DNA from: a phage
Reading direction: 5' to 3' (one strand)
Length of the DNA: 64,000 nt
Sequence record: OZ346175.1
The notes beneath the pieces were generated by a model. That model was not told the origin of the DNA and searched no databases. It was given only the letters and a program-made list of their open reading frames with translations. The translations under genes were made by a program, and so were the position numbers. Positions 29,399 to 63,556 of the stretch are shown here, piece after piece; the first letter of the stretch is position 1; each line of letters begins with the position of its first letter.

Positions 29399-29669
29399 AG
29401 AGAAGTGGGAGATTTTACCATTAGTCAGTGAAGGCGGTAATGGTTGTGAAATGTACATGATACGTGGGCATGTTCCAGAACCAATTGCACTTGAGATGGT
29501 AAACAACTTTACAGATGGCTCTTACAAAGACTTAGGGGAGCCAAATATAAAGCAGCAATGGGTAAAGCCTGTACCAGACAGCACAGGTAACTGTAGTGTA
29601 CTTTATCACGTTGTAGACCCTGCAAAATGCAAATCTGCAATGGCAGTAACAAACGTAACTTTTGATTGA
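29391..29669 (+). CDS. hypothetical protein
   Basis: 92-aa ORF. Confidence 0.4.
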   Translation: MAKEKWEILPLVSEGGNGCEMYMIRGHVPEPIALEMVNNFTDGSYKDLGEPNIKQQWVKPVPDSTGNCSVLYHVVDPAKCKSAMAVTNVTFD

Positions 29670-29680
29670 GAGAGAAAACT

Positions 29681-30562
29681 ATGAAAACTGTTATTGAAGC
29701 CGTCGTCACCGCTCAAGAGAAATTCTTCCACACAGAAAAATTTAATATCATTCAATTCCCATCTGGAGAGATTGGTGGAAACTTCTCTGAAGATTTTGTT
29801 AAGTTTACTGAGCGTAATGCTGGTAAGATTGATAATGTTATAATTACTGTACAGGGATATGACAAAGATACACTGTTTGCATTAGCTTTGGCTAAGGATG
29901 CCGTTGACAGTCTTGTTCCCCAGAAATCAGCGATGAAAACCGTTGTTTTCGGGTTCTTACCAAATGCTCGATATGACCGCCACATGTTCAAAGGTGATGC
30001 AGCAGCACTGAAAGTCTTTGCCAACCTAGTTAATGCAATGGGTTTTGATGCAGTATGTGCTCTTGACCCTCACAGTAATGTTGCAGAAAACTTATTTAAG
30101 TGCTTTCAAAGCATGAAGCAAAAAGATGTGGCAGTACACTTTGCAAGTGACCCACGCATTGATTTCTTGGTAGCCCCAGATGCAGGTGCAGCTAAGAAGA
30201 CTGAAGATACCGCTAAAGAGGTGGATAAACCGTATATCACAATGTCTAAGGTGCGCAATCTTAAGACTGGAGAAATCACTGGTATGCGAATCCTTGACGA
30301 TGTTGATTTGACCGATAAAACTGTCATGATTCTTGATGATATCTGTGATGGTGGTCGAACCTTCGTAGAGGCAGCTAAACACCTACGTGAAGCAGGTGCA
30401 AAACGTGTGGAACTCTATGTAACTCATGGTATTTTCTCTAAAGGTGTTGAAAACTTGCTTGACAACGGTATTGACCATATCTACACTACAAACACTTTAG
30501 GTGAAGCTAAAGACCGTGGCTTAACACATTACGCCCAAGTTACTGTAGCAACCATTGATTGA
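29681..30562 (+). CDS. prs: ribose-phosphate pyrophosphokinase (PRPP synthetase)-like protein
   Basis: PRPP-binding motif MILDDICDGGRTF and ALDPHS segment; start set at MKTVIEAV; directly upstream of NAMPT. Confidence 0.6.
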   Translation: MKTVIEAVVTAQEKFFHTEKFNIIQFPSGEIGGNFSEDFVKFTERNAGKIDNVIITVQGYDKDTLFALALAKDAVDSLVPQKSAMKTVVFGFLPNARYDRHMFKGDAAALKVFANLVNAMGFDAVCALDPHSNVAENLFKCFQSMKQKDVAVHFASDPRIDFLVAPDAGAAKKTEDTAKEVDKPYITMSKVRNLKTGEITGMRILDDVDLTDKTVMILDDICDGGRTFVEAAKHLREAGAKRVELYVTHGIFSKGVENLLDNGIDHIYTTNTLGEAKDRGLTHYAQVTVATID

Positions 30563-30607: not shown

Positions 30608-32389
30608 ATGACTAAATCGCTTTACGCAGTACCAGCAGGTTTAAACGCAGATGCTTACAAATCTGGTCATGTTTACCAGTACCCTAGTGCAACAGAATAC
30701 TTGATGTTCAACCTGACACCACGTAGTGACAAATGGTTTAACAGCCCCTTAGCAATTGATGGTGTAGTAGCTTTTGGTATTCAACGTTTCGTTAAAGATT
30801 ACCTGATAGACCACTGGAACGCCACTTTCTTTGAACGTGATAAAAAAGAAGCAGTTGACGAAATCTTAGAAGTCATGAATGGTGTTCTGGGTAAAGATGC
30901 TATTGGTCGAGAGCATTGGGAAGCACTTCACGATTTAGGCTATCTACCAGTTGAAGTATACGCTGTAGAAGAAGGTACAGTTGTTCCTATGCGTGTTCCA
31001 ATGATTGTCTTCCAGAACACTGTTTCAGGTTTCCATTGGGTAGCAGGTTATCTGGAAGATGCTTTCTCTGCTGAGATTTGGAAGACTTGCACCATTGCAA
31101 CTATTGCATTGCACTACAAACGTATCTGTAAGAAGTGGGCTGACCTTACTTGCGACAATGACTTACATTTACCTTATCAGTGCCATGACTTTGCTATGCG
31201 TGGTATGTCCGGCTTTACCGATGACGCATTTAATGCTGTAGGTCACTTAACCAGCTTTAAAGGAACTGATAGCTTCCCTGCTGTATACACGGCTAAACGC
31301 ATCTATGGACAGTCTTACCCAATTTCTGATATTGGTAGTTCTGTACCAGCCACTGAACACTCTGTAATGTGTGCAAACATTGCTTGGGAAGGTGGTAATG
31401 AATTGATTGAAGAGGAAAGACGCTTTAAAGGTGAGTTGCAAACCTTCCGTCGTTTCTTAACAGAAACTTACCCAACTGGTATTGCAAGTATTGTTTCAGA
31501 TACTTATAACTTCTGGAGAACTGTGTCAGAAATCTTACCAGCACTTCGTAAAGAAATTATGGAACGTGATGGTAAGCTGGTAATTCGCCCTGACTCTGGA
31601 GACCCTGTACATATTGTCACAGGCTATAAAGCAATCCACTTAGAGTGTGCTAAGAAGGCTTATTATGAGCACATAAGCAAGCTGGAAGCTAGTGACACAA
31701 TGTTGAATGCTGTTCTGAACATGAAGCTTGAAAACATCAACTATGGTATTGCTGGATGGCTACTGTCAGAAGGCTACGAAATGGTTGTTGACAGAGAAGA
31801 CTTTGAAGTTGCTGATACAGTGATGTTGAAAAATGCTTATATGGTTGGCTCTGCAAACGTTGTAACACGTCCTGTAGCAGAGATTGATGGAGCTATTAAG
31901 ACCCTGTACAACATCTTCGGAGGGACTATTAACTCTAAAGGGTTTAAGGTACTGGATGAGCACATCGGCCTTATCTATGGTGACTCTATCACGCTGGAAC
32001 GTGCAAACGAAATCCTGAAGCGTCTGTATGAAATGGGTTTTGCAAGCTCTAACGTAGTGTTTGGTGTAGGCTCTTACACTTACCAGTACATGACTCGTGA
32101 CACCTTTGCATTTGCTGTCAAAGCAACTCTTGCAAGCATTGGTGGTAAAGAGATTATGCTTGCAAAAGACCCTAAAACAGATAGTGGTGTTAAGAAATCT
32201 GCCTTTGGTGGTGTAGCACCTATGTGGGATGGTGATAAGCTGAAAGCTGTAGATGGCTATGGATTCCAGAGTTTTGCAGATGTACTTGACCACCAAGCTT
32301 GTGCTTTACGTTTAGTCTTTAGCGACTCTGAGCAGTTCGGTTATACAACTCTTGGAGATATTCGAAATAATATTGACAAGCAGCTTTAA
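30608..32389 (+). CDS. nadV: nicotinamide phosphoribosyltransferase
   Basis: 593 aa; NAMPT-like blocks (ADAYKSGH..QYP; HDFAMRGMSGF...SFKGTDSFPA). Confidence 0.85.
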   Translation: MTKSLYAVPAGLNADAYKSGHVYQYPSATEYLMFNLTPRSDKWFNSPLAIDGVVAFGIQRFVKDYLIDHWNATFFERDKKEAVDEILEVMNGVLGKDAIGREHWEALHDLGYLPVEVYAVEEGTVVPMRVPMIVFQNTVSGFHWVAGYLEDAFSAEIWKTCTIATIALHYKRICKKWADLTCDNDLHLPYQCHDFAMRGMSGFTDDAFNAVGHLTSFKGTDSFPAVYTAKRIYGQSYPISDIGSSVPATEHSVMCANIAWEGGNELIEEERRFKGELQTFRRFLTETYPTGIASIVSDTYNFWRTVSEILPALRKEIMERDGKLVIRPDSGDPVHIVTGYKAIHLECAKKAYYEHISKLEASDTMLNAVLNMKLENINYGIAGWLLSEGYEMVVDREDFEVADTVMLKNAYMVGSANVVTRPVAEIDGAIKTLYNIFGGTINSKGFKVLDEHIGLIYGDSITLERANEILKRLYEMGFASSNVVFGVGSYTYQYMTRDTFAFAVKATLASIGGKEIMLAKDPKTDSGVKKSAFGGVAPMWDGDKLKAVDGYGFQSFADVLDHQACALRLVFSDSEQFGYTTLGDIRNNIDKQL

Positions 32390-36585: not shown

Positions 36586-37134
36586 ATGAAGAAATTGATT
36601 CTAGGTTTGTGCTTAATGTTTACAGCACACTTATCTTATGCAGTTGACTGCCCAGAGCTATCAATTAGCCAAAAAGTAAACATGTTAAAAGCTTACCAGT
36701 ATGGTGAGAATAACATGGGTAAAGGTTGGGGTATCACTCTAGCTGCTATAGCCTTACAAGAGTCAGAGTTAGGTCTGAAGGTAGAGAATAAAAAGACACA
36801 TGATTATGGTATCTTCCAGAATCACTTGAAGACTGTTGTAAAGCGTAACAAAATCAGTCCTAATGTGGCTAAAAAGAAACTCTTAAAAGACTTTGACTAT
36901 GCTGCTAAGGAAACTCACAAAGAGCTTGAGTTTTGGACAAAGGTGCATGGTCAGCCAAAGTCAAAGAAGACTTTACAAAAAGTCTTAGCATCATATAATG
37001 CTGGGTATTCGTACAGAATCCCTAAAGCTAAGAAATATTCTCAAGATGTTTATAACAATATGAAAGTAATTGCTCAATGTGAATTTGCAACAAACATTTC
37101 TAAGGTAAACCATGAAAAAATTAAGAAAGTCTGA
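36586..37134 (+). CDS. secreted lytic transglycosylase-like protein
   Basis: Signal peptide (MKKLILGLCLMFTAHLSYA) and SLT-like motifs (QESELG; DYGIFQ; SYNAGYS). Confidence 0.55.
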   Translation: MKKLILGLCLMFTAHLSYAVDCPELSISQKVNMLKAYQYGENNMGKGWGITLAAIALQESELGLKVENKKTHDYGIFQNHLKTVVKRNKISPNVAKKKLLKDFDYAAKETHKELEFWTKVHGQPKSKKTLQKVLASYNAGYSYRIPKAKKYSQDVYNNMKVIAQCEFATNISKVNHEKIKKV

Positions 37135-37807
37135 TGAAGTATTGTGCCATGCTTATGACTTACATCCTCATGAGTTAGTTCTTGATTCCTGTGTATGGAC
37201 TCCAGAACAGTGCAGGGATTTTGAAGACACCGCAAGAGAAGTTGTATGTTCACTTGAAGAGTTCCACACATCAGAGCCAATTGTGAATGTTGTAGATAAA
37301 GAGACTGGACAAACTATAGGTGTAAGTCGTGATAGCTTAGTCATAGTCAATAAAGACCTTGTAGAAAAAGGTAACCTCATCTTAGCAGATATTGATGGTG
37401 TTCTTACAAATTTTAATCACGAAGATTGCTCAACGGAATTGACTGATGGGTCATTCTCACAGTACACTAATCTTCTTGACTCTGTAAGAGCAAAACCAAC
37501 GTATGTCTTTAGTATTATTGATGCAATTACTAATCATGCTGCCATTGGACTCTTGACAGCGAGAGGTGAATCTCAGAGAATACCTACTGAGATGTTTTTA
37601 AGGCACAATATAGAGCATGATTACTTGCTTTTTATGCGTGGTTTTGGAACTAACTCTATAAGTGCAGAAAGTTTGAAAGTGAGGATGATTCAATCTTGCA
37701 TTCTTCCTTACTTTAATATAGTATGTTTTATAGAAGATACAGAGAAGAATGTTCAGAAGGTAAACAGAATACTTCCACACATCAAAACCATGTTAGTTAA
37801 ACATTGA
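37112..37807 (+). CDS. HAD-superfamily phosphatase-like protein
   Basis: HAD motif I-like ILADIDGVL; true start may be an internal Met. Confidence 0.4.
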   Translation: MKKLRKSDEVLCHAYDLHPHELVLDSCVWTPEQCRDFEDTAREVVCSLEEFHTSEPIVNVVDKETGQTIGVSRDSLVIVNKDLVEKGNLILADIDGVLTNFNHEDCSTELTDGSFSQYTNLLDSVRAKPTYVFSIIDAITNHAAIGLLTARGESQRIPTEMFLRHNIEHDYLLFMRGFGTNSISAESLKVRMIQSCILPYFNIVCFIEDTEKNVQKVNRILPHIKTMLVKH

Positions 37808-39416: not shown

Positions 39417-39644
39417 ATGAAAGTAATTCTAGCCAGAGATAAAAAGACACGGAAAATTATCCGGTCAGCAGTATTTATTGGAAGAAATGAAGTGATTCCT
39501 TTTACAGCAAATGATGCGATAGTCTACAGGAAAAAATTAGCATTCAGTTATTGCTTACGTGGCTTTATCTCCCAGCCATTGGAAGACTTTAAAAGTCGTT
39601 GTGGTAAAGGTATCATCATTCAAGAGGCAATTATCAATGGCTGA
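39417..39644 (+). CDS. hypothetical protein
   Basis: 75-aa ORF. Confidence 0.35.
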   Translation: MKVILARDKKTRKIIRSAVFIGRNEVIPFTANDAIVYRKKLAFSYCLRGFISQPLEDFKSRCGKGIIIQEAIING

Positions 39645-39837
39645 CTTCTGCAAAGACTGTTCTATCGAAATGTTTGGACGTGATACAGGTGACTTAAAAG
39701 GTCTTATCACTGAAGACGACTTTAAAGCTGGTTATGCAATGCCAGTAATCTGTGAAGGTTGTGGGTGTATCTGGGTAGACCACGAAGGGCAACGTGTAAA
39801 ACCTTCAGAGGATAAAGAATCTTGGGAGAGATGTTAA
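39637..39837 (+). CDS. hypothetical zinc-binding protein
   Basis: ORF 39559..39837 trimmed to MADFCKDCS...CEGCGC. Confidence 0.35.
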   Translation: MADFCKDCSIEMFGRDTGDLKGLITEDDFKAGYAMPVICEGCGCIWVDHEGQRVKPSEDKESWERC

Positions 39838-40623
39838 ATGGGTATTGTAAAAATCATCAATGGGGATATCTTCTCAGCATTTGATAAAGGTAAGTTTGAT
39901 ATTATTGGTCACGGTTGTAACTGTATGAACTTAATGGGTGCAGGTATCGCTGATAAGATTTCTAAACTTTACCCAAAAGCATATGAGACCGATACAGAAG
40001 TTTATCTGTATGCAGGTGGTATAAGTCACAAACCCTGTGAAAATTTGCTAGGCAATTTCTCTGTAGCACGTTTAAAACAAGGCCGTATAGCCAATCTTTA
40101 CACTCAGCTTAAGACTGGTAAAGATGCCCGATACAGTGATTTAGAGTCATCTTTGAAGCAACTTAACAGATACTGTGAAGTTAATCAGTTGAAGAAAGTT
40201 GGCTTACCTATGATTGGTGCAGGTATCGGCGGACTAGACCCTCAAGCCGTCACAGTTATCATTAATCAGGTGATGAAGAGTGTAGATGTTTATCTGTATG
40301 TCTACGAAGGAGAGATGTACCACAAGTTACGCTCAGGTTGGAAGAATTACTGTGAACCAGAATACTTTGCAGGTGTAGTAGTGTTCATAGACGACACAGT
40401 TACCCTCTTCAGACGAAGAAAAGGTAAGGTACATCAAAGTAACCCTCCGGTTGAAAAGATGTCTCTAAGTAACGCTCTAGTTACCCACCTGTCGAAGAGC
40501 AATCACAGGATTGCAGTAACATTTGGCAGTGATGCAGATACATATATCTATGCAAGAACTGATGAGGATATCGAGTTAATCTTCTCTTCACCAGAGCTTA
40601 CCTTCTTAGACGCAAAGAACTAA
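39838..40623 (+). CDS. macro-domain (ADP-ribose binding/processing) protein
   Basis: Macro-like motifs IIGHGCNCMNLMGAGIA and GLPMIGAGIGGLD in N-terminal 150 aa, plus about 110-aa C-terminal extension. Confidence 0.55.
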   Translation: MGIVKIINGDIFSAFDKGKFDIIGHGCNCMNLMGAGIADKISKLYPKAYETDTEVYLYAGGISHKPCENLLGNFSVARLKQGRIANLYTQLKTGKDARYSDLESSLKQLNRYCEVNQLKKVGLPMIGAGIGGLDPQAVTVIINQVMKSVDVYLYVYEGEMYHKLRSGWKNYCEPEYFAGVVVFIDDTVTLFRRRKGKVHQSNPPVEKMSLSNALVTHLSKSNHRIAVTFGSDADTYIYARTDEDIELIFSSPELTFLDAKN

Positions 40624-40692
40624 GAAACTTCGTAGTAAATTCACAATAGACTAAGCCTTTCTTATCTGGTAAATTTTTCAGGTAAGGAGGGC

Positions 40693-40880
40693 TTTTTCAT
40701 TTCAGATTTGTGCAGGTAGAGTTCTGTAGAGAAATCTATAGAGAAAATTTTGAACTCCAAAGAGAAAATTCATTCTCAAACTGTGCAGGTAATCTCCAAA
40801 GAGCTTTTTCATTTTCAAAACGTGCAGACCCCGCTCAGGTCGGGCAAGAAAAATCATTTTAGAATTGTGCAGGTAGGTGG
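40693..40880. repeat. iteron-like direct repeats (4-5 copies)
   Basis: Repeated unit tttcatt(t)tca(a/g)a-N2-3-gtgcaggta near 40693, 40765, 40803, 40848, with an extra gtgcaggtgg at 40878. Confidence 0.6.
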
Positions 40881-41051
40881 GTGCAGGTGGGGATGTCGCC
40901 ATTTCTCACAAGGCTACCACATCTGGAAATAAAAGTCAACAGAAAAATTTGTAGCGGATTGAAAAATAATTCTTGATTGTAGTTCTGTTTTGTGGTAGTC
41001 GTGCGCGCCCGTTTCATTCCATTTTTGCCAAAAATATTTTAAAAATTTTTA

Positions 41052-41080
41052 TTGACTCTTTGAACGGGTTTTTATAGTAT
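41052..41080 (+). promoter_or_regulatory. sigma70-type promoter
   Basis: TTGACT-N17-TAGTAT in AT-rich region upstream of first small ORF. Confidence 0.5.
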
Positions 41081-58227: not shown

Positions 58228-58304
58228 CTCTGTTTAGCTCAGCTTGGTAGAGCGTTCCGTTTGGGGCGGTAAGGCCGGAGGTTCAAGTCCTCCAACAGAG
58301 ACCA
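58228..58304 (+). tRNA. tRNA-Pro (anticodon TGG)
   Basis: Hand cloverleaf: acceptor ctctgtt/aacagag, anticodon loop ttTGGgg, T-arm ggagg-ttcaagt-cctcc, CCA encoded. Confidence 0.7.
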
Positions 58305-58311
58305 AATTAAT

Positions 58312-58389
58312 GTTCCAGTAGACAAAATGGTAAAGTCACCACTCTTTCAAAGTGGATATCTGAGGGTTCAAATCCCTTCTGGAACGCCA
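58312..58389 (+). tRNA. tRNA-Glu (anticodon TTC)
   Basis: Acceptor gttccag/ctggaac, anticodon stem ccact/agtgg, loop ctTTCaa, T-loop ttcaaat, CCA encoded. Confidence 0.6.
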
Positions 58390-58396
58390 GTTTTGA

Positions 58397-58469
58397 CAGA
58401 AGACCAATTACAGCAAACTTAATCTTATTCATCTGAAGGTAAATCGGACAAAGAAGAGATTTGGTCTGG
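58397..58469 (+). ncRNA. structured element A (cagaagacc...ggtctgg stem family)
   Basis: 5' cagaagaccaattacagcaa and 3' tggtctgg; stem agacca/tggtct; family member without tRNA-like module. Confidence 0.35.
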
Positions 58470-58480
58470 TCATTAAGAAT

Positions 58481-58557
58481 TGCGGGTATAGAGAAAGGGC
58501 GTCTCACATGTCTCATTAGCATGGTATCGGCAGGTTCGACTCCTGCACCCGCCTCCA
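58481..58557 (+). tRNA. tRNA-Met or Ile2 (anticodon CAT), non-canonical acceptor
   Basis: D-stem gaga/tctc, anticodon stem catgt/gcatg, loop ctCATta, T-arm gcagg-ttcgact-cctgc; acceptor pairing needs one mismatch. Confidence 0.5.
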
Positions 58558-58563
58558 AATTTG

Positions 58564-58624
58564 CAGAAGACCGTATTCAGCAACAAAATACTTTTTTGCG
58601 GATAAAAGAAAAAACACGGTCTGG
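58564..58624 (+). ncRNA. structured element B (cagaagacc...ggtctgg stem family)
   Basis: cagaagaccgtattcagcaa ... cggtctgg; stem agaccg/cggtct (compensatory relative to A). Confidence 0.35.
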
Positions 58625-58635
58625 CAATGTATTAA

Positions 58636-58712
58636 GGTTAGGAAGCACATAAGGTATGTGCGGTCGCCTGTTAAGCGAATGGCACAGGGTTCGAATCCCT
58701 GACTAACCGCCA
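58636..58712 (+). tRNA. tRNA-Asn (anticodon GTT)
   Basis: D-stem gcac/gtgc, anticodon loop ctGTTaa, T-arm caggg-ttcgaat-ccctg, CCA encoded; position 8 is A (atypical). Confidence 0.55.
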
Positions 58713-58720
58713 AATTAAAT

Positions 58721-58808
58721 GTGTCGTTATCCCGTAGATGGTAGCGGTGGGGACTGTAAATCCCTTGTCATTGAGACTCGGTAGGTTCGACTCCTACACG
58801 GCACACCA
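58721..58808 (+). tRNA. tRNA-Tyr (anticodon GTA)
   Basis: 88 nt with long variable arm; anticodon stem gggga/tccct, loop ctGTAaa; T-arm gtagg-ttcgact-cctac; CCA encoded. Confidence 0.7.
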
Positions 58809-58813
58809 ATAAA

Positions 58814-58890
58814 GGCTATGTAGTTTAACTGGAGAAAATACTCCCCTGTCACGGGAGATGATGTGAGTTCAAGTCTCATCGTAGCCGCCA
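58814..58890 (+). tRNA. tRNA-Asp (anticodon GTC)
   Basis: Acceptor ggctatg/cgtagcc, anticodon stem ctccc/gggag, loop ctGTCac, T-loop ttcaagt, CCA encoded. Confidence 0.75.
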
Positions 58891-58951
58891 ATTTTGAGAG
58901 GGCTATTTAGCCCCTCCCTTAAAGAGTTCTTACGAGTATTCTTTAAGGGAG

Positions 58952-59035
58952 CAGAAGACCAAATACAGCAAGAATGTATGAAATTTCAAGCCAATTTAAT
59001 TTTGAAAATTTAAAACTTGGTCTGGCTCAACAAAT
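58952..59035 (+). ncRNA. structured element C (cagaagacc...ggtctgg stem family)
   Basis: cagaagaccaaatacagcaa ... ttggtctgg; stem agaccaa/ttggtct. Confidence 0.35.
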
Positions 59036-59038
59036 TTA

Positions 59039-59170
59039 CAGAAGACCGTTTACAGCAAAACTTAAACAATCTATTTCTCCGGTAAAGAAAAGGCGAAGGT
59101 TCGATTCCTTCACTCGGCAGATGTCGAGTTGGTGTAATGGTAGCACTTAAGATGATAAACAACGGTCTGG
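59039..59170 (+). ncRNA. Y-RNA-like element D with circularly permuted tRNA-like module
   Basis: 8-bp closing stem agaccgtt/aacggtct; internally T-arm gaagg-ttcgatt-ccttc, acceptor-like stem actcggc-agat-gtcgagt closed by a loop, then D-arm gtg-taatggtag-cac. Confidence 0.5.
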
Positions 59171-59171
59171 T

Positions 59172-59315
59172 AATTATCTTTGTAGATAAGTTATTAAGCT
59201 TACCTGTGAGTATGCGACCACAAAGGGTGAAAGGGTAAATTCTAGATTTAAACCCAACAAGGCACATCGCTACAGACCTTAAGCAAGTCTGGGTAGCTTA
59301 TCTACAAAGATAATT
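59172..59315 (+). ncRNA. structured element closed by 19-bp perfect inverted repeat
   Basis: aattatctttgtagataag (59172-59190) exactly complementary to cttatctacaaagataatt (59297-59315); internal cagacc...gtctgg hairpin. Confidence 0.4.
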
Positions 59316-59319
59316 TAAT

Positions 59320-59395
59320 GGAAGTGTAGCAGAATGGTGATGCGGCAGACTTTTAATCTGACAGGCGATGGGTTCGAATCCCTCCACTTCTACCA
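59320..59395 (+). tRNA. tRNA-Lys (anticodon TTT)
   Basis: Acceptor ggaagtg/cacttct, anticodon loop ctTTTaa, T-loop ttcgaat (T-stem needs a bulge), CCA encoded. Confidence 0.55.
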
Positions 59396-59399
59396 ATAT

Positions 59400-59476
59400 G
59401 GTTCAGTCGCAGATAAGGTAATGCAAGGGTCTCATAAGCCCTATGAATGTTGGTTCGATTCCCATCTGAACCTCCA
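59400..59476 (+). tRNA. tRNA-Met (anticodon CAT)
   Basis: Acceptor ggttcag/ctgaacc, anticodon stem agggt/gccct, loop ctCATaa, T-loop ttcgatt, CCA encoded. Confidence 0.6.
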
Positions 59477-59477
59477 A

Positions 59478-59553
59478 GCTGGTATAGTTAAGAAGGTTAT
59501 AACACTCCCCTGATAAGGGAACATCGGTGGTTCGATTCCACCTACCAGTACCA
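59478..59553 (+). tRNA. tRNA-Ile (anticodon GAT)
   Basis: Acceptor gctggta/taccagt, D-stem gtta/taac, anticodon loop ctGATaa, T-arm ggtgg-ttcgatt-ccacc, CCA encoded. Confidence 0.75.
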
Positions 59554-59568
59554 ATTTCAATAAAGTTG

Positions 59569-59597
59569 TTGACATTGAGATGTGACTACTTTATAGT
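59569..59597 (+). promoter_or_regulatory. sigma70-type promoter internal to tRNA cluster
   Basis: TTGACA-N17-TATAGT. Confidence 0.5.
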
Positions 59598-59798
59598 AAC
59601 CTTAGTTTTCGTTGCGTAGCGTCTATTTTGCAAATTTAAAATAAATGCAAACGACAATGTTTTTCTGGCAGTAGCTTGATAGGCTAAACACCAGTGAGGT
59701 CTTCCAATCCCTCATCAAAGAATTTGGCGTACTCGCCCACGGTATGATTAATAAGGTGGGCATCTTTAAGGGCTTTCTAAGAGAGTCTTTAAAGATAA

Positions 59799-59876
59799 TG
59801 CACCCTTAGTTCAATTGGATAGAGCAACGGTCTTCTAAATCGTTAGTTACAGGTTCGAATCCTGTAGGGTGTACCA
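59799..59876 (+). tRNA. tRNA-Arg (anticodon TCT)
   Basis: Acceptor gcaccct/agggtgt, D-arm gttc-aattggata-gagc, anticodon stem acggt/atcgt, loop ctTCTaa, T-arm acagg-ttcgaat-cctgt, CCA encoded. Confidence 0.75.
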
Positions 59877-60018
59877 AATAGTTAGCAGATTACTTAGACG
59901 GCCTTAGCGGGTCTTCCTGTAGGGAGGTGGTCTGTATCTCATGTTTTCCAGAACATGTAAATAATCTGAGAAGAAGCTTGACAGTGTTGAGATAACAGGG
60001 TAAGCTTCGAATTATAAT

Positions 60019-60101
60019 ATGGGACGATGTTAAGACTCTAAGGCATGAGCAACGGCCTCCAAAACCGTTTCAAAGGGGTTCAACTCCTCCGTCCCATGCC
60101 A
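60019..60101 (+). tRNA. tRNA-like gene, probable Trp (anticodon CCA), atypical D region
   Basis: Acceptor atgggac/gtcccat, anticodon loop ctCCAaa, T-loop ttcaact, CCA encoded; D region about 7 nt longer than canonical. Confidence 0.45.
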
Positions 60102-60114
60102 AAGTCTTATTAGG

Positions 60115-60202
60115 GGTAGGTAGCGGCTAATGGCAGCCAAACAGTCTTGAAAACTGTTGCCACTGTAGAGATACGGTGAGGGTTCGACTCCTTTACTTAC
60201 CG
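60115..60202 (+). tRNA. tRNA-Ser (anticodon TGA)
   Basis: 88 nt with long variable arm; anticodon stem acagt/actgt, loop ctTGAaa; T-arm gaggg-ttcgact-ccttt; CCA not encoded. Confidence 0.7.
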
Positions 60203-60458
60203 CCTAATAAGATTTACTCCGTCCATGCTTGTTCGCATTGTCGGTTTATCCCTCGTGTATTGTCGTACACTGTCAAAGCACCTAGTAGGTGTCACGGAGA
60301 AGAGATAATATCAAGCTCTCCAAAGGTTCTAGTCACCGGATTAAACAAGACTATGCAAAGACCTATTTAGGTCTTTTTAGAGGGCTTCTAAGGTTATTAG
60401 TCGCTTGTTGTGGAACCTTGTTGCTCAGGTTCTTAGAAGTTCTCTAAAAAGATTTAAT

Positions 60459-60536
60459 GGGAGATTGACGGTAATTGGTAAACCTACCATCCTTAGAAGT
60501 TGGTGTTTGAGGGTTCGAATCCCTTGTCTCCTACCA
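60459..60536 (+). tRNA. tRNA with apparent anticodon TAG (Leu-type) on short-variable-arm scaffold
   Basis: Acceptor gggagat/gtctcct, anticodon loop ctTAGaa, T-arm gaggg-ttcgaat-ccctt, A73, CCA encoded; no long variable arm. Confidence 0.45.
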
Positions 60537-60543
60537 AATTAAT

Positions 60544-60619
60544 GCAGGTGTAGCAAAATGGTTATGCGGCTGACTCTTAATCAGTAAGACGATGGGTTCA
60601 ATTCCCTCCACCTGTACCA
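60544..60619 (+). tRNA. tRNA-Lys (anticodon CTT)
   Basis: Paralog of 59320..59395; acceptor gcaggtg/cacctgt, anticodon stem gctga/tcagt, loop ctCTTaa, T-loop ttcaatt, CCA encoded. Confidence 0.6.
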
Positions 60620-60625
60620 GACATC

Positions 60626-60702
60626 GGGGTCATAGTTTATATGGTTAAAATTCGAGTTTTGCAAACTTGGGAACTGAGTTCAATTCTCAGTGACTCCACC
60701 AA
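60626..60702 (+). tRNA. tRNA-Ala (anticodon TGC)
   Basis: Acceptor ggggtca/tgactcc, anticodon stem cgagt/acttg, loop ttTGCaa, T-arm ctgag-ttcaatt-ctcag, CCA encoded. Confidence 0.7.
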
Positions 60703-60708
60703 TTAGTG

Positions 60709-60781
60709 CATCCATAGTTTAAACGGGAAAATTACAGTCTTCCAAACTGAGGTTGAGGGTTCGATTCCCTCTGGATGCTCC
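60709..60781 (+). tRNA. tRNA-Gly (anticodon TCC)
   Basis: Acceptor gcatcca/tggatgc, anticodon loop ctTCCaa, T-arm gaggg-ttcgatt-ccctc. Confidence 0.65.
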
Positions 60782-60796
60782 AAATTAAGGTGTGAT

Positions 60797-61210
60797 ATGA
60801 AAATATGCAGTACTTGCAGAATACCAAAAGATGAAAGCTTATTCCATAAGAATAAGAACAAGAAAGATGGTCTTCAAAGTCAATGCAAAGACTGTGCAAG
60901 ACTTCGTGATGCAAAGAGTTATCAAGCAAATGATAAAAGGAAAGAGGCTATTAAAAGCACTCGTAACTTCAAGAGAGAGTATAACAAGACTCTAGCTAGA
61001 AGGTACAAAGCTTTATGCAAATGTCATATATGTGGTGAGAAAGAACCAGTTGCATTGGATTTACACCATACAGACCCTTCCCAGAAAGATTTGAATCCTG
61101 CATCACTTTATTCATACTCCACAAAAAGATTAAAAGATGAAATCAGAAAGTGCATTGTCTTGTGCGCTAACTGTCACAGAAAAGTACATGCTGGTATCAT
61201 AAAAGTTTAA
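60797..61210 (+). CDS. HNH endonuclease inside tRNA cluster
   Basis: 137 aa; zinc-binding Cys pairs and HNH motif (LDLHHTDP...CANCHRKVH); flanked by tRNA genes. Confidence 0.75.
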   Translation: MKICSTCRIPKDESLFHKNKNKKDGLQSQCKDCARLRDAKSYQANDKRKEAIKSTRNFKREYNKTLARRYKALCKCHICGEKEPVALDLHHTDPSQKDLNPASLYSYSTKRLKDEIRKCIVLCANCHRKVHAGIIKV

Positions 61211-61211
61211 T

Positions 61212-61288
61212 GCTGCTTTCGTATAATTGGCTATTACACATCCCTTGTAAGGATGGAAATGCAGGTTCAAGTCCTGTGAGCAGCACCA
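61212..61288 (+). tRNA. tRNA-Thr (anticodon TGT)
   Basis: Acceptor gctgctt/gagcagc, anticodon stem catcc/ggatg, loop ctTGTaa, T-arm gcagg-ttcaagt-cctgt, CCA encoded. Confidence 0.75.
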
Positions 61289-61292
61289 ATTC

Positions 61293-61379
61293 AGAGGTCA
61301 AGTGAAAGACCGCTTTGAGTCAACTGAAGACCGTAACAAATCCCACGGAGTTGAGTTAGCGGCACAACTCCAGACCTCT
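61293..61379 (+). ncRNA. structured element E between tRNA genes
   Basis: Closing stem agaggtc/gacctct; internal hairpin ggagttg-agttagcggca-caactcc; two gaagacc motifs. Confidence 0.35.
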
Positions 61380-61384
61380 TTCAT

Positions 61385-61459
61385 ACTCGCTTAGTTTATA
61401 TGGTAAAACATCACCCTTACAAGATGAAGAAAAAGGTTCAAGTCCTTTAGTGAGTACCA
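61385..61459 (+). tRNA. tRNA-Val (anticodon TAC)
   Basis: Acceptor actcgct/agtgagt, D-stem gttt/aaac, anticodon loop ctTACaa, T-arm aaagg-ttcaagt-ccttt, CCA encoded. Confidence 0.7.
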
Positions 61460-61460
61460 T

Positions 61461-61538
61461 GTTCCAGTATCCCAATTGGCAGAGGATGCAAGCTCAAACC
61501 TTGTATTAGTGACGGTTCGAATCCGTCTTGGAACACCA
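61461..61538 (+). tRNA. tRNA with apparent anticodon CAA (Leu-type) on short-variable-arm scaffold
   Basis: Acceptor gttccag/ttggaac, anticodon stem gcaag/cttgt, loop ctCAAac, T-arm gacgg-ttcgaat-ccgtc, A73, CCA encoded. Confidence 0.45.
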
Positions 61539-61543
61539 ATTTT

Positions 61544-61619
61544 GCAGGATTAGTTCAAATGGATAGAGCAACAGTCTACGAAGCTGTTAATAGGGGTTCG
61601 AATCCCTTATCCTGCGCCA
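61544..61619 (+). tRNA. tRNA-Arg (anticodon ACG)
   Basis: Acceptor gcaggat/atcctgc, D-arm gttc-aaatggata-gagc, anticodon stem acagt/gctgt, loop ctACGaa, T-loop ttcgaat, CCA encoded. Confidence 0.75.
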
Positions 61620-61638
61620 ATTTAAAGAGGCTATTTAG

Positions 61639-62196
61639 ATGAGATATTTGAAGTATGCTTCATGGATTTTTTTAGCTTTGTTAGAGCCATTTGCAGCAAT
61701 CTTAGCAGTTATCTTAGCACCTTTTGTAGTTCCATTCTACAGTGAGAAGAAAGGACACTTACCTTTCGGGTTCAGATGGATGGAGACATATGACAACCCA
61801 ATTGATGGTGATGAAGGTCACGTTAAAAGATGGGCTAATATTAGATGGATTGGTAAACTAGGTGTCTACATGCAAAGAGTCGGATGGCTCTGGAGAAACA
61901 AAGCTTATAACTTCTCTTACCATGTATTAGGAAGAGATGTAAGAGATGTTACTAAGTGGAAAGGTAATATCAACGTAAGTTCTGACCCCGAAGATAATCA
62001 GACAGGTTATCTCCTAATGTGGAACAGTAATGCTTGGGGATTATTCGCTTTTATCCCATCAATTAAAATCTTTGGTAAACAATTTTACTGGAGAATTTAT
62101 ATTGGATGGAAACTAAAAAGTGTTGTCCCAGAAGAAAGAGCATTCTCAAGGGAAAGAGTTATGTTGGCATTCTTTATTCATCCACTGAGAAAGTAA
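61639..62196 (+). CDS. hypothetical membrane protein
   Basis: 185 aa; hydrophobic N-terminus (WIFLALLEPFAAILAVILAPFVVPF), Trp-rich; embedded in tRNA cluster. Confidence 0.5.
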   Translation: MRYLKYASWIFLALLEPFAAILAVILAPFVVPFYSEKKGHLPFGFRWMETYDNPIDGDEGHVKRWANIRWIGKLGVYMQRVGWLWRNKAYNFSYHVLGRDVRDVTKWKGNINVSSDPEDNQTGYLLMWNSNAWGLFAFIPSIKIFGKQFYWRIYIGWKLKSVVPEERAFSRERVMLAFFIHPLRK

Positions 62197-62204
62197 AGAT
62201 TTAA

Positions 62205-62280
62205 AGGGGATTAGTTTACAAGGTTAAAACCTCGGTCTTTGAAATCGAAGAAGTTGGTTCAATTCCAACATCCCCCGCCA
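62205..62280 (+). tRNA. tRNA-Gln (anticodon TTG)
   Basis: Acceptor aggggat/atccccc with unpaired 1:72, anticodon stem tcggt/atcga, loop ctTTGaa, T-arm gttgg-ttcaatt-ccaac, CCA encoded. Confidence 0.65.
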
Positions 62281-62282
62281 AT

Positions 62283-62361
62283 GCTCCATTACTCCAATTG
62301 GCAGAGAGGCCAGACTTAAAATCTGTGTTATGTATCGGTTCGAATCCGATATGGAGTACCA
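62283..62361 (+). tRNA. tRNA with apparent anticodon TAA (Leu-type) on short-variable-arm scaffold
   Basis: Acceptor gctccat/atggagt, anticodon loop ctTAAaa, T-arm atcgg-ttcgaat-ccgat, A73, CCA encoded; variable region 7 nt. Confidence 0.45.
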
Positions 62362-62366
62362 AATTT

Positions 62367-62442
62367 AGCGGTATAGCATAACTGGCAATGCAGCAGCCTC
62401 TGAAGCTGTCCTATTAAGGTTCAAATCCTTATGCCGCTGCCA
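62367..62442 (+). tRNA. tRNA-Gln (anticodon CTG)
   Basis: Acceptor agcggta/tgccgct, D-stem gcat/atgc, anticodon stem gcagc/gctgt, loop ctCTGaa, T-arm taagg-ttcaaat-cctta, CCA encoded. Confidence 0.65.
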
Positions 62443-62473
62443 CTTCTAAGGATTCTTGCGAGAGTCCTTAAAT

Positions 62474-62549
62474 GTGGCCTTATCATAAACGGTAATGACC
62501 CATGCTGTGAACATGGTCTATACGGGTTCAAATCCCGTAGGTCACCCCA
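62474..62549 (+). tRNA. tRNA-His (anticodon GTG)
   Basis: Acceptor gtggcct/aggtcac, D-stem tcat/atga, anticodon stem ccatg/catgg, loop ctGTGaa, T-arm acggg-ttcaaat-cccgt, CCA encoded. Confidence 0.75.
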
Positions 62550-62554
62550 ATTTA

Positions 62555-62631
62555 TAGTCCAAGTAGCTTATATGGTTAAAGCGCGTGTCTGAAAAACATG
62601 AGAAGAGGGTTCAAATCCCACTGGACTACCA
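62555..62631 (+). tRNA. tRNA-Phe (anticodon GAA)
   Basis: Acceptor tagtcca/tggacta, D-stem gctt/aagc, anticodon stem cgtgt/acatg, loop ctGAAaa, T-loop ttcaaat; 3' end register ambiguous. Confidence 0.55.
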
Positions 62632-62647
62632 ATTTCAAAGGTGCTTA

Positions 62648-63382
62648 ATGAAAGAGATGACAGAACAAGGTAAGGAGATTTTTAATCTCTTAAAAACTGG
62701 TAAAGGGTTCTCTAACCCGCTTATTACTGGTGCAGCAGTTCTCGGTGGAACCGTAGCTGCTTCTACATCACTTGTAAGCTCTATTAGTTCTGTAACAGAC
62801 CCTACAATGAAAGAGAAACTTGTTGCTGCTGGACTTACAACAGTCCTTCTAAACAGCTTTACAACAAGCCTTACAAGCACTACAGCAACTACTAAAACTC
62901 TGACAGACTACGGTCAAAAATCTATTGATGAGTTTTCATCACGTATGCAGGTAGCAAAGGGGTATTCCAATGTTATGGGTGCAGCAGGAGAACAAGTTGG
63001 TTGTACACCATTCAGTGGTATCATGGGTGTTGCTACAGAGTATGGTCAAAAAGCTATTGACATGATGAACAGTACACTAGATAGTGTTAATGGTGTGTTA
63101 AGTGACTTACAAGATGCTATTGATAAGGGTCTTGATACTGTTTCTGATTTAGCTAACCAAGCTGTCAGTAAGATTAATGAAGGTATTTCAAAGATTACAG
63201 CTTATGCAGATGAAGTTGTGCAGATGATTGAAGAAGAAGCTGCCCCTATTGCAGAGTACCTTAAAACGAATATCAATGGGTTCTTAGCAGGTATCTTACC
63301 AGACTGGTTTGACGATGCTTGTAAAACTGGTGTGATTGACACTATTGCAACACCAGAAATGAAGAGCGCATTACAGAAATAA
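62648..63382 (+). CDS. hypothetical Ser/Thr-rich protein
   Basis: ORF 62585..63382 trimmed to MKEMTEQ to clear tRNA-Phe; Ser/Thr-rich low-complexity N-terminal half. Confidence 0.45.
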   Translation: MKEMTEQGKEIFNLLKTGKGFSNPLITGAAVLGGTVAASTSLVSSISSVTDPTMKEKLVAAGLTTVLLNSFTTSLTSTTATTKTLTDYGQKSIDEFSSRMQVAKGYSNVMGAAGEQVGCTPFSGIMGVATEYGQKAIDMMNSTLDSVNGVLSDLQDAIDKGLDTVSDLANQAVSKINEGISKITAYADEVVQMIEEEAAPIAEYLKTNINGFLAGILPDWFDDACKTGVIDTIATPEMKSALQK

Positions 63383-63383
63383 T

Positions 63384-63476
63384 GGAAGATTAACCCTAAA
63401 AGGTAAGGGAGCAGTTTGCTAAACTGCCAGTAGCTGAGAAATCGGTGTACCAGTTCAAGTCTGGTATCTTCCTCCA
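63384..63476 (+). tRNA. tRNA-Ser (anticodon GCT)
   Basis: 93 nt with 21-nt variable arm; acceptor ggaagat/atcttcc, D-stem ccc/ggg, anticodon stem gcagt/actgc, loop ttGCTaa, T-arm accag-ttcaagt-ctggt, CCA encoded. Confidence 0.75.
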
Positions 63477-63480
63477 ATTT

Positions 63481-63556
63481 GAATCCGTGACAGAAATGGA
63501 TATGTACCTGTCTGCAAAACAGGTTTATAAGGGTTCGAGTCCCTTCGGATTCTCCA
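63481..63556 (+). tRNA. tRNA-Cys (anticodon GCA)
   Basis: Acceptor gaatccg/cggattc, anticodon stem cctgt/acagg, loop ctGCAaa, T-loop ttcgagt, CCA encoded. Confidence 0.75.

Follow-up and report, generated by a model that had tools for sequence, protein, structure and literature searches.

Only in 2025–2026 were two phage macro domains tied to a concrete function, namely countering the DNA-ADP-ribosylating defence DarTG2. The HIDEN-SEQ preprint identified tk.4 as the one gene that T4 conditionally needs on Escherichia coli expressing DarTG2, a requirement borne out by a clean knockout, and the gene was accordingly named adfM, for anti-DarT factor Macrodomain (10.1101/2025.11.20.689424); an unknown anti-DarTG2 factor had earlier been inferred in T-even phages (PMC11257639). 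What is known of Tk.4-type function comes from genetics, in T4 only. In an independent study a PhiKZ-type macro protein, gp104 of the chimalliviruses, is also named AdfM: it counters DarTG2, enters the phage nucleus and strips the DarT2-made ADP-ribose from DNA in vitro; it keeps the DarG-type catalytic Lys (K78), belongs to a different phage macro lineage and, as far as that paper describes it, has no appended orphan domain (PMC13309987).

Other precedents bear on how such a protein might work. The bacterial antitoxin DarG2 binds DarT through a separate domain, and the phage factors AdfA and AdfB work by binding the toxin (PMC11257639, PMC13309987). SCO6735 of Streptomyces coelicolor, a single-domain bacterial ALC1-like protein, protects against DarT and cleaves thymidine-linked ADP-ribose from DNA; where TARG1 has Lys84 and DarG the equivalent Lys80, it has Gln85, which is essential (Q85A and Q85E are inactive), and the chemistry proposed for it involves an activated water molecule (PMC9411070). 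Catalytically dead versions of SCO6735, DarG and TARG1 still inhibit DarT via interaction (PMC9411070). Human TARG1/OARD1 and yeast Poa1p, of the Macro_Poa1p-like group, are single-domain eukaryotic proteins whose substrates are Glu/Asp-linked protein ADP-ribose, O-acetyl-ADP-ribose or ADP-ribose-1''-phosphate.

The locus considered here lies in a 64,000-nucleotide stretch of phage DNA (the window; sequence record OZ346175.1), where the ORF list and the sequence give a complete coding sequence for a two-domain macro protein of 261 aa at 39838..40623 (+), with its ATG at 39838 and its stop codon at 40621–40623, exactly the frame that an earlier sequence-only reading of the window had singled out. 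The gene is 96% identical in nucleotide sequence to its counterpart in Escherichia phage skuden and 90–95% identical to those in ~200 Felixounavirus records, i.e., FelixO1-like myoviruses of Escherichia, Salmonella and Shigella. The window also carries, at 58228–63556 (+), 26 tRNA genes that between them serve most amino acids, with small ORFs interspersed, a FelixO1-like trait that agrees with the annotation of the close relative Bas63, in which the macro gene is bas63_0095. Copies of ~93% identity appear in GenBank GU169904.1 (Staphylococcus phage SA1, 128378–128683) and in one record labelled 'Campylobacter', both most likely chimeric or contaminated assemblies. The protein matches PHROG 335 ('phosphatase') over residues 1–260 (E 3e-110), and the gene in its relatives is variously labelled 'putative phosphatase', 'phosphatase', 'macro domain-containing protein', 'O-acetyl-ADP-ribose deacetylase (ymdB)' or 'hypothetical protein'. 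The macro domain as such is thus ordinary, already widely annotated by similarity, and no new discovery; what is new is that it can be assigned to the Tk.4/AdfM lineage with its Gln-type site, and that the orphan domain C-terminal to it is documented as fast-evolving and confined to Ounavirinae-like phages. The literature yielded no paper on the Felixounavirus macro protein, nor one in which any Ounavirinae phage was tried against ADP-ribosylating defences.

Residues 1–157 (39838..40308, +) constitute a macro domain of the TARG1/DarG/Poa1p (ALC1-like) class, with the three-layer alpha/beta/alpha fold of the superfamily ending at about residue 157: the TARG1 alignment reaches residue 156, and the last macro strand in the model spans residues 150–155. 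Pfam Macro (PF01661) matches residues 25–141 over profile positions 2–117 of 118 (E 6.5e-8), its 33 bits exceeding the gathering score of 22, and both glycine-rich motifs on which the sequence-only reading had based its macro-domain call are present, so that call holds. The loop-1 motif GHGCNCMNLMGAGIA (residues 24–38; 39907..39951, +), recognised by conservation and the TARG1/Tk.4 alignment as the loop binding the diphosphate and distal ribose of ADP-ribose, aligns with AHCISEDCRMGAGIA in TARG1 and HGCNCFHTMGSGVA in T4 Tk.4. The loop-2 motif GLPMIGAGIGGLD (residues 122–134; 40201..40239, +), by conservation and alignment the second glycine-rich, phosphate-binding loop, contains GLPMIGAGIGG (residues 122–132; nt 40201–40233), and its PxIGxG pattern is common to the Felixounavirus protein, TARG1 and Tk.4. 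Across 19 two-domain homologs, with overall identity down to ~33%, H25, G26, N28, C29, N31, M33, G34, A35, G36 and A38 of loop 1 and P124, G127, A128, G129, I130, G132, L133 and D134 of loop 2 are invariant, as are the segments MGAGIA (33–38) and IGAGIGG (126–132) that align with the TARG1 loops. A more distant macro relative, the 339-aa metagenomic protein P0026, is fused to a different domain (PF20274), a fusion from which it is plain that the lineage has gained appended domains of differing kinds more than once.

The nearest relatives in sequence and fold are TARG1, DarG and Poa1p rather than the MacroD, PARG or macroH2A types. The resemblance to DarG is restricted to the macro region: the DarG equivalog NF048014 matches with 51 bits against a cutoff of 250, over positions 4–154 of 338 only, which places the protein outside the DarG family proper, and the PADLOC DarG model is matched at positions 17–147 of 329. 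The DarT-binding domain that occupies the C-terminal ~180 profile positions of the 338-position DarG model has no sequence match in the Felixounavirus protein, and unlike the DarG2 of T. aquaticus or M. tuberculosis the gene has no adjacent darT. This class assignment bears on the idea that the protein undoes some other ADP-ribose-based defence output, such as ADP-ribosylated RNA or protein, or the TIR-derived gcADPR or His-ADPR of Thoeris. We consider that idea rather improbable: the closest folds and HMMs are those of DarG and TARG1, not of signal-binding macro domains, the literature gave no phage macro domain that cleaves Thoeris signals, and the NAD+ genes of the window, 7.4 kb off, have no known functional connection with macro domains. 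For the processing of NAD-derived signals, the other possibility named in the sequence-only reading, the analysis turned up no specific evidence.

Macro domains abound in phages; a tblastn search recovers macro relatives in about 2,780 records, T4 Tk.4 among them. Along its entire length the macro domain is 33–35% identical to Tk.4 of T4 and 33–36% to that of PP01 (pairwise E 3e-23), and it shares with the T4 protein the HGCNC, MGxG, NLYTQ and PxIGAGIG motifs, including a Gln at the catalytic-Lys position; both are encoded by non-structural genes of virulent Escherichia myoviruses. The differences lie elsewhere: Tk.4 is a single-domain protein of 155–159 aa, whereas the Felixounavirus protein bears an additional 104-aa orphan domain; T4 has Asn in place of D134 of the GGLD motif; and tk.4 adjoins vs and tk, while the Felixounavirus gene lies downstream of rIIA/rIIB and the spanins.

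The active site deserves particular attention. The segment NLYTQ (residues 86–90; 40093..40107, +) places Q90, by conservation and the TARG1 alignment, where TARG1 (K84) and DarG (K80) have their catalytic Lys. All five residues, N86, L87, Y88, T89 and Q90, are invariant in the 19 homologs, and the segment recurs identically in Tk.4 of T4 and PP01 and in phiEa104, aligned to YLITK of TARG1. The catalytic Lys of the TARG1–DarG–Poa1p class is therefore replaced here by an invariant Gln90; since TARG1 D125 likewise aligns with G131, both residues of the TARG1 dyad are absent (Lys84 to Gln, Asp125 to Gly). The missing dyad does not argue for inactivity: SCO6735, active with Gln85 at the same position, sets a precedent in mechanism for DNA ADP-ribosylglycohydrolases of the Gln type. 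The PDB sequence searches returned no direct match between SCO6735 and the Felixounavirus macro family, so that the shared Gln may be convergent.

Taken with the one-third identity to Tk.4 and the conserved motifs, these features make an AdfM-type protein, one that would erase DarT2-type ADP-ribosylation from phage ssDNA, the reading we favour, at roughly even chances; the broader claim, that the protein is an active counter-defence macro enzyme removing ADP-ribose, we regard as highly probable. The suggestion, already made from the letters of the window, that the protein might reverse an ADP-ribosylation-based host defence has thereby become the best-supported reading, through homology to T4 Tk.4/AdfM and the matches to DarG models, though it is one drawn from sequence comparison. 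Under the proposed mechanism, the macro domain, being of the DarG/TARG1 structural class, would bind ADP-ribose via its two glycine-rich loops and hydrolyse the bond between ADP-ribose and a macromolecule, most likely the thymidine-linked ADP-ribose with which the DarT2-type toxins of DarTG2 mark single-stranded phage DNA, and its removal would allow phage replication to resume. Given that an invariant Q90 occupies the catalytic-Lys position, catalysis would probably be Gln-dependent and water-activated as in SCO6735, and not Lys-dependent as in DarG and TARG1. The C-terminal 104 residues would act as a lineage-specific accessory domain packed onto the macro domain, possibly a targeting or partner-binding module for the toxin, DNA or replisome, in a role analogous to that of the DarT-binding domain of DarG, to which it is unrelated in sequence and fold.

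That orphan domain comprises residues 158–261 (40309..40620, +), i.e., 104 residues where the sequence-only reading had counted about 110 aa without assignment, and no Pfam or PADLOC family matches it. The AlphaFold2 model predicts a linker helix (158–167), six beta-strands (179–184, 187–194, 197–201, 213–215, 226–229 and 235–239) and a terminal helix (243–249), with pLDDT 80–89 for the domain in the full-length model and 85–89 for its core when modelled alone; the pTM of the full-length model, 0.83, is a sign that the two domains may pack against each other in a defined manner. The length of the region is kept in the 19 homologs, down to ~33% overall identity. That length conservation, the pLDDT of 80–89 and a dN/dS below 1 together establish the region as a real conserved domain.

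Outside this family no relative of the domain turned up. The sole Foldseek match in BFVD is a member of its own family from phage SUSP2, a profile of the domain finds no significant match among PDB sequences and only phrog_335 itself among PHROGs, and a fold search against solved structures, with DarG-containing ones in the library, returned no significant similarity. A word-indexed search with the C-terminal 107 aa alone gave no match, the query most likely being too short for the index; HMMER, run exhaustively over 1.84 billion representative proteins, gave 13 matches, of which the genuine ones are macro fusions or fragments thereof. Several candidates were discarded: the long multi-stretch profile matches (P0033–P0041, and BamB in the PDB) look like beta-propeller noise and were set aside as spurious, P0040, the one inspected, being a repetitive beta-propeller that hits a short beta-hairpin pattern; P0032 (114 aa), considered as a standalone copy, starts inside the last macro strand (VDVYLYVY) and is a truncated fusion; and an AAA ATPase match in Pfam (E 0.17–0.26, below cutoff) and one to phrog_10351 (E ~0.04, 2 of 16 members) are both noise. 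Within the phage collection the domain is present in 243 records, and among the matches listed these belong to the Ounavirinae (Felixounavirus, Suspvirus (mistaenkt) and the Moogle/Mordin/Sf14 groups), apart from two odd and probably contaminated records.

The two parts of the protein have evolved very differently. In a comparison of seven Felixounavirus alleles (the window gene at 39838–40623 against L001 and L008–L012), median dN/dS is 0.064 for the macro half and 0.44 for the C-terminal half. The 5' 157 codons are under very strong purifying selection (dS 0.17–0.54, dN up to 0.048), whereas the 3' 104 codons show a lower dS (0.03–0.22) with a higher dN (up to 0.087), a combination that suggests either recombination or mosaicism together with selection that is relaxed or diversifying, or constraint at the nucleotide level. 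Further out, the ortholog in the Kolesnikvirus Erwinia phage phiEa104 (L005, 2498–3280; 260 aa) has a macro domain that is 45% identical, while no similarity to the Felixounavirus domain is detected in its last ~100 aa (hhalign probability 0.1%), a result that reflects either a domain swap or extreme divergence. The orphan domain is thus real and foldable, constrained yet fast-evolving, restricted to one lineage, and found only as an appendage of the macro domain.

Such a pattern is also what would be expected of an interface with a variable host protein, and it lends something to an explanation in which the protein is mainly non-catalytic, i.e., a stoichiometric inhibitor of a DarT-like toxin (or a sequestering agent for ADP-ribose), with the orphan domain as its binding surface. 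The inhibition of DarT by dead macro proteins, the DarT-binding domain of DarG2, the toxin binding by AdfA and AdfB, and the joint absence of the catalytic Lys and the TARG1 Asp all point the same way. Even so, this explanation appears quite unlikely: the ADP-ribose-loop residues and Q90 are invariant and very strongly constrained, as suits an enzyme, SCO6735 depends for catalysis on a Gln at that very position (PMC9411070), and no similarity of the domain to a solved fold was found, DarG-containing library structures included.

For the favoured AdfM-type enzyme the same precedents, namely the DarT-binding domain of DarG2, toxin binding by AdfA and AdfB, and inactive macro proteins that inhibit DarT, offer a guide to the appendage, and from them we infer, as a working position, that the orphan domain may be an accessory targeting or partner-binding module. 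Nothing in its composition favours ssDNA binding or ssDNA mimicry, since its charge varies widely (pI 4.8–9.7). A bolder version, to which we attach little probability, has the domain as an independently evolved toxin-binding or substrate-targeting module, and the protein as a convergent, phage-built analogue of the two-domain DarG that both erases the modification and neutralises the toxin.

The genomic surroundings speak to what the protein may work with. The macro gene is the final member of a run of genes on the + strand. Immediately upstream, a 66-aa ORF (39637–39837, +) whose two CxxC pairs resemble a zinc ribbon ends in a TAA stop that abuts the macro ATG. An ORF in the matching place on the diverged contig L004 also has a CxxC...CxxC pattern in an unrelated sequence, and none is found in L003 or phiEa104; a conserved, translationally coupled zinc-ribbon partner was therefore rejected, the CxxC pairs occurring in two of four loci, with unrelated sequences, and being absent from the other two. 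Beyond the gene, 30 nt past the stop codon, a consensus scan picks out, as a pattern match only, a terminator-like hairpin with a 17-pair stem and an 8-nt loop followed by a T-run (40653..40704, +). Just downstream of it are two small ORFs on the opposite strand (40702–41017, −), hypothetical proteins in the Bas63 annotation, in a convergent arrangement that is consistent with a transcription unit ending at the hairpin; a promoter-like TTGACT-17-TAGTAT (41052–41080, +) precedes the next + strand genes.

Among metagenomic two-domain homologs the gene order is rIIA, rIIB, Dam-type methylase, SLT-like, HAD/PNKP-like, small genes and macro fusion, and two diverged orthologous loci keep as neighbours rIIA/rIIB, the Dam-type methylase and the HAD/PNKP-like gene; the shared order makes the diverged metagenomic homologs orthologs in Ounavirinae-like phages. 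The corresponding gene in the window (37112–37807, +) is annotated in Bas63 as a 'polynucleotide kinase' (PNKP-like) and has no Pfam match at E<=0.01; its orthologs in the diverged contigs give only weak or faint HAD_PNKP matches, with the place ~2 kb upstream of the macro gene conserved.

Another explanation is small-molecule processing, in which the protein, as an ADP-ribose-1''-phosphate phosphatase or O-acetyl-ADP-ribose deacetylase, might clear by-products of RNA repair or sirtuins, and the 'phosphatase' and 'YmdB' labels stem from such a reading. They are inherited annotation and not tests, however; the PNKP-like ORF is itself without a Pfam match at that threshold, and T4 Tk.4, the one phage homolog to have a phenotype, counters a toxin that ADP-ribosylates DNA. 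The annotation of the complete Bas63 genome, where many genes are hypothetical, lists no ADP-ribosyltransferase, DarT, Tpt1/KptA, 2H phosphoesterase or sirtuin, and Pfam finds no DarT or other ART among ten ORFs near the macro gene, whose neighbours are small hypothetical phage genes. The lack of annotated writer and RNA-repair enzymes in Bas63 argues both against a role in disposing of RNA-repair by-products and against a self-contained writer/eraser pair; small-molecule processing is accordingly unlikely as the main function.

The remaining alternative concerns NAD+. The window does contain a PRPP-synthetase-like ORF of 298 aa (29666–30562, +) and an unusually long NAMPT-like ORF of 593 aa with NAMPT_N and a split NAPRTase match (30608–32389, +), which together look like the NAMPT arm of an NARP2-type NAD+ reconstitution pathway; no NMN adenylyltransferase was identified alongside them. 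They precede the macro gene on its own strand, which invites the view that the protein belongs to a phage NAD+ salvage or reconstitution module, where it would either furnish free ADP-ribose or remove by-products as NAD+ is resynthesised. The nearness to NAD+ salvage genes remarked on in the sequence-only reading is correct as to the genes and only loosely so as to the distance, as they end 7.4 kb upstream, and the functional link is not supported: they occupy another part of the gene cluster, separated by more than ten genes, among them rIIA, rIIB, SLT-like, PNKP-like and spanin genes, the NARP1, NARP2 and NARP3 pathways as described use no macro domain, and the T4-type Tk.4 adjoins vs and tk and not NAD+ genes. 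Membership in such a module is thus very improbable. The two diverged orthologous loci extend only ~8 kb upstream and are therefore uninformative on NAMPT.

Returning to the AdfM-type reading, several consequences would follow if it holds. The Gln-for-Lys site common to T4 Tk.4, SCO6735 and the Felixounavirus protein would mark a mechanistically distinct class of DNA ADP-ribosylglycohydrolases. Were the protein also a DarG analogue, the fast evolution of its C-terminal domain and the replacement seen in Kolesnikvirus would be the signature of an arms race against the varied DarT-like toxins of the hosts, and the domain would represent a previously undescribed protein fold family. It is small and tractable, and its binding partner could reveal how phages tune a generic eraser to a host toxin or to their own replication machinery. 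If the Felixounavirus protein is indeed an AdfM, this counter-defence reaches a third major group of Escherichia and Salmonella phages, and resistance to DarTG2-carrying strains would be predicted for Felixounavirus, phages that have been widely proposed for biocontrol and therapy.
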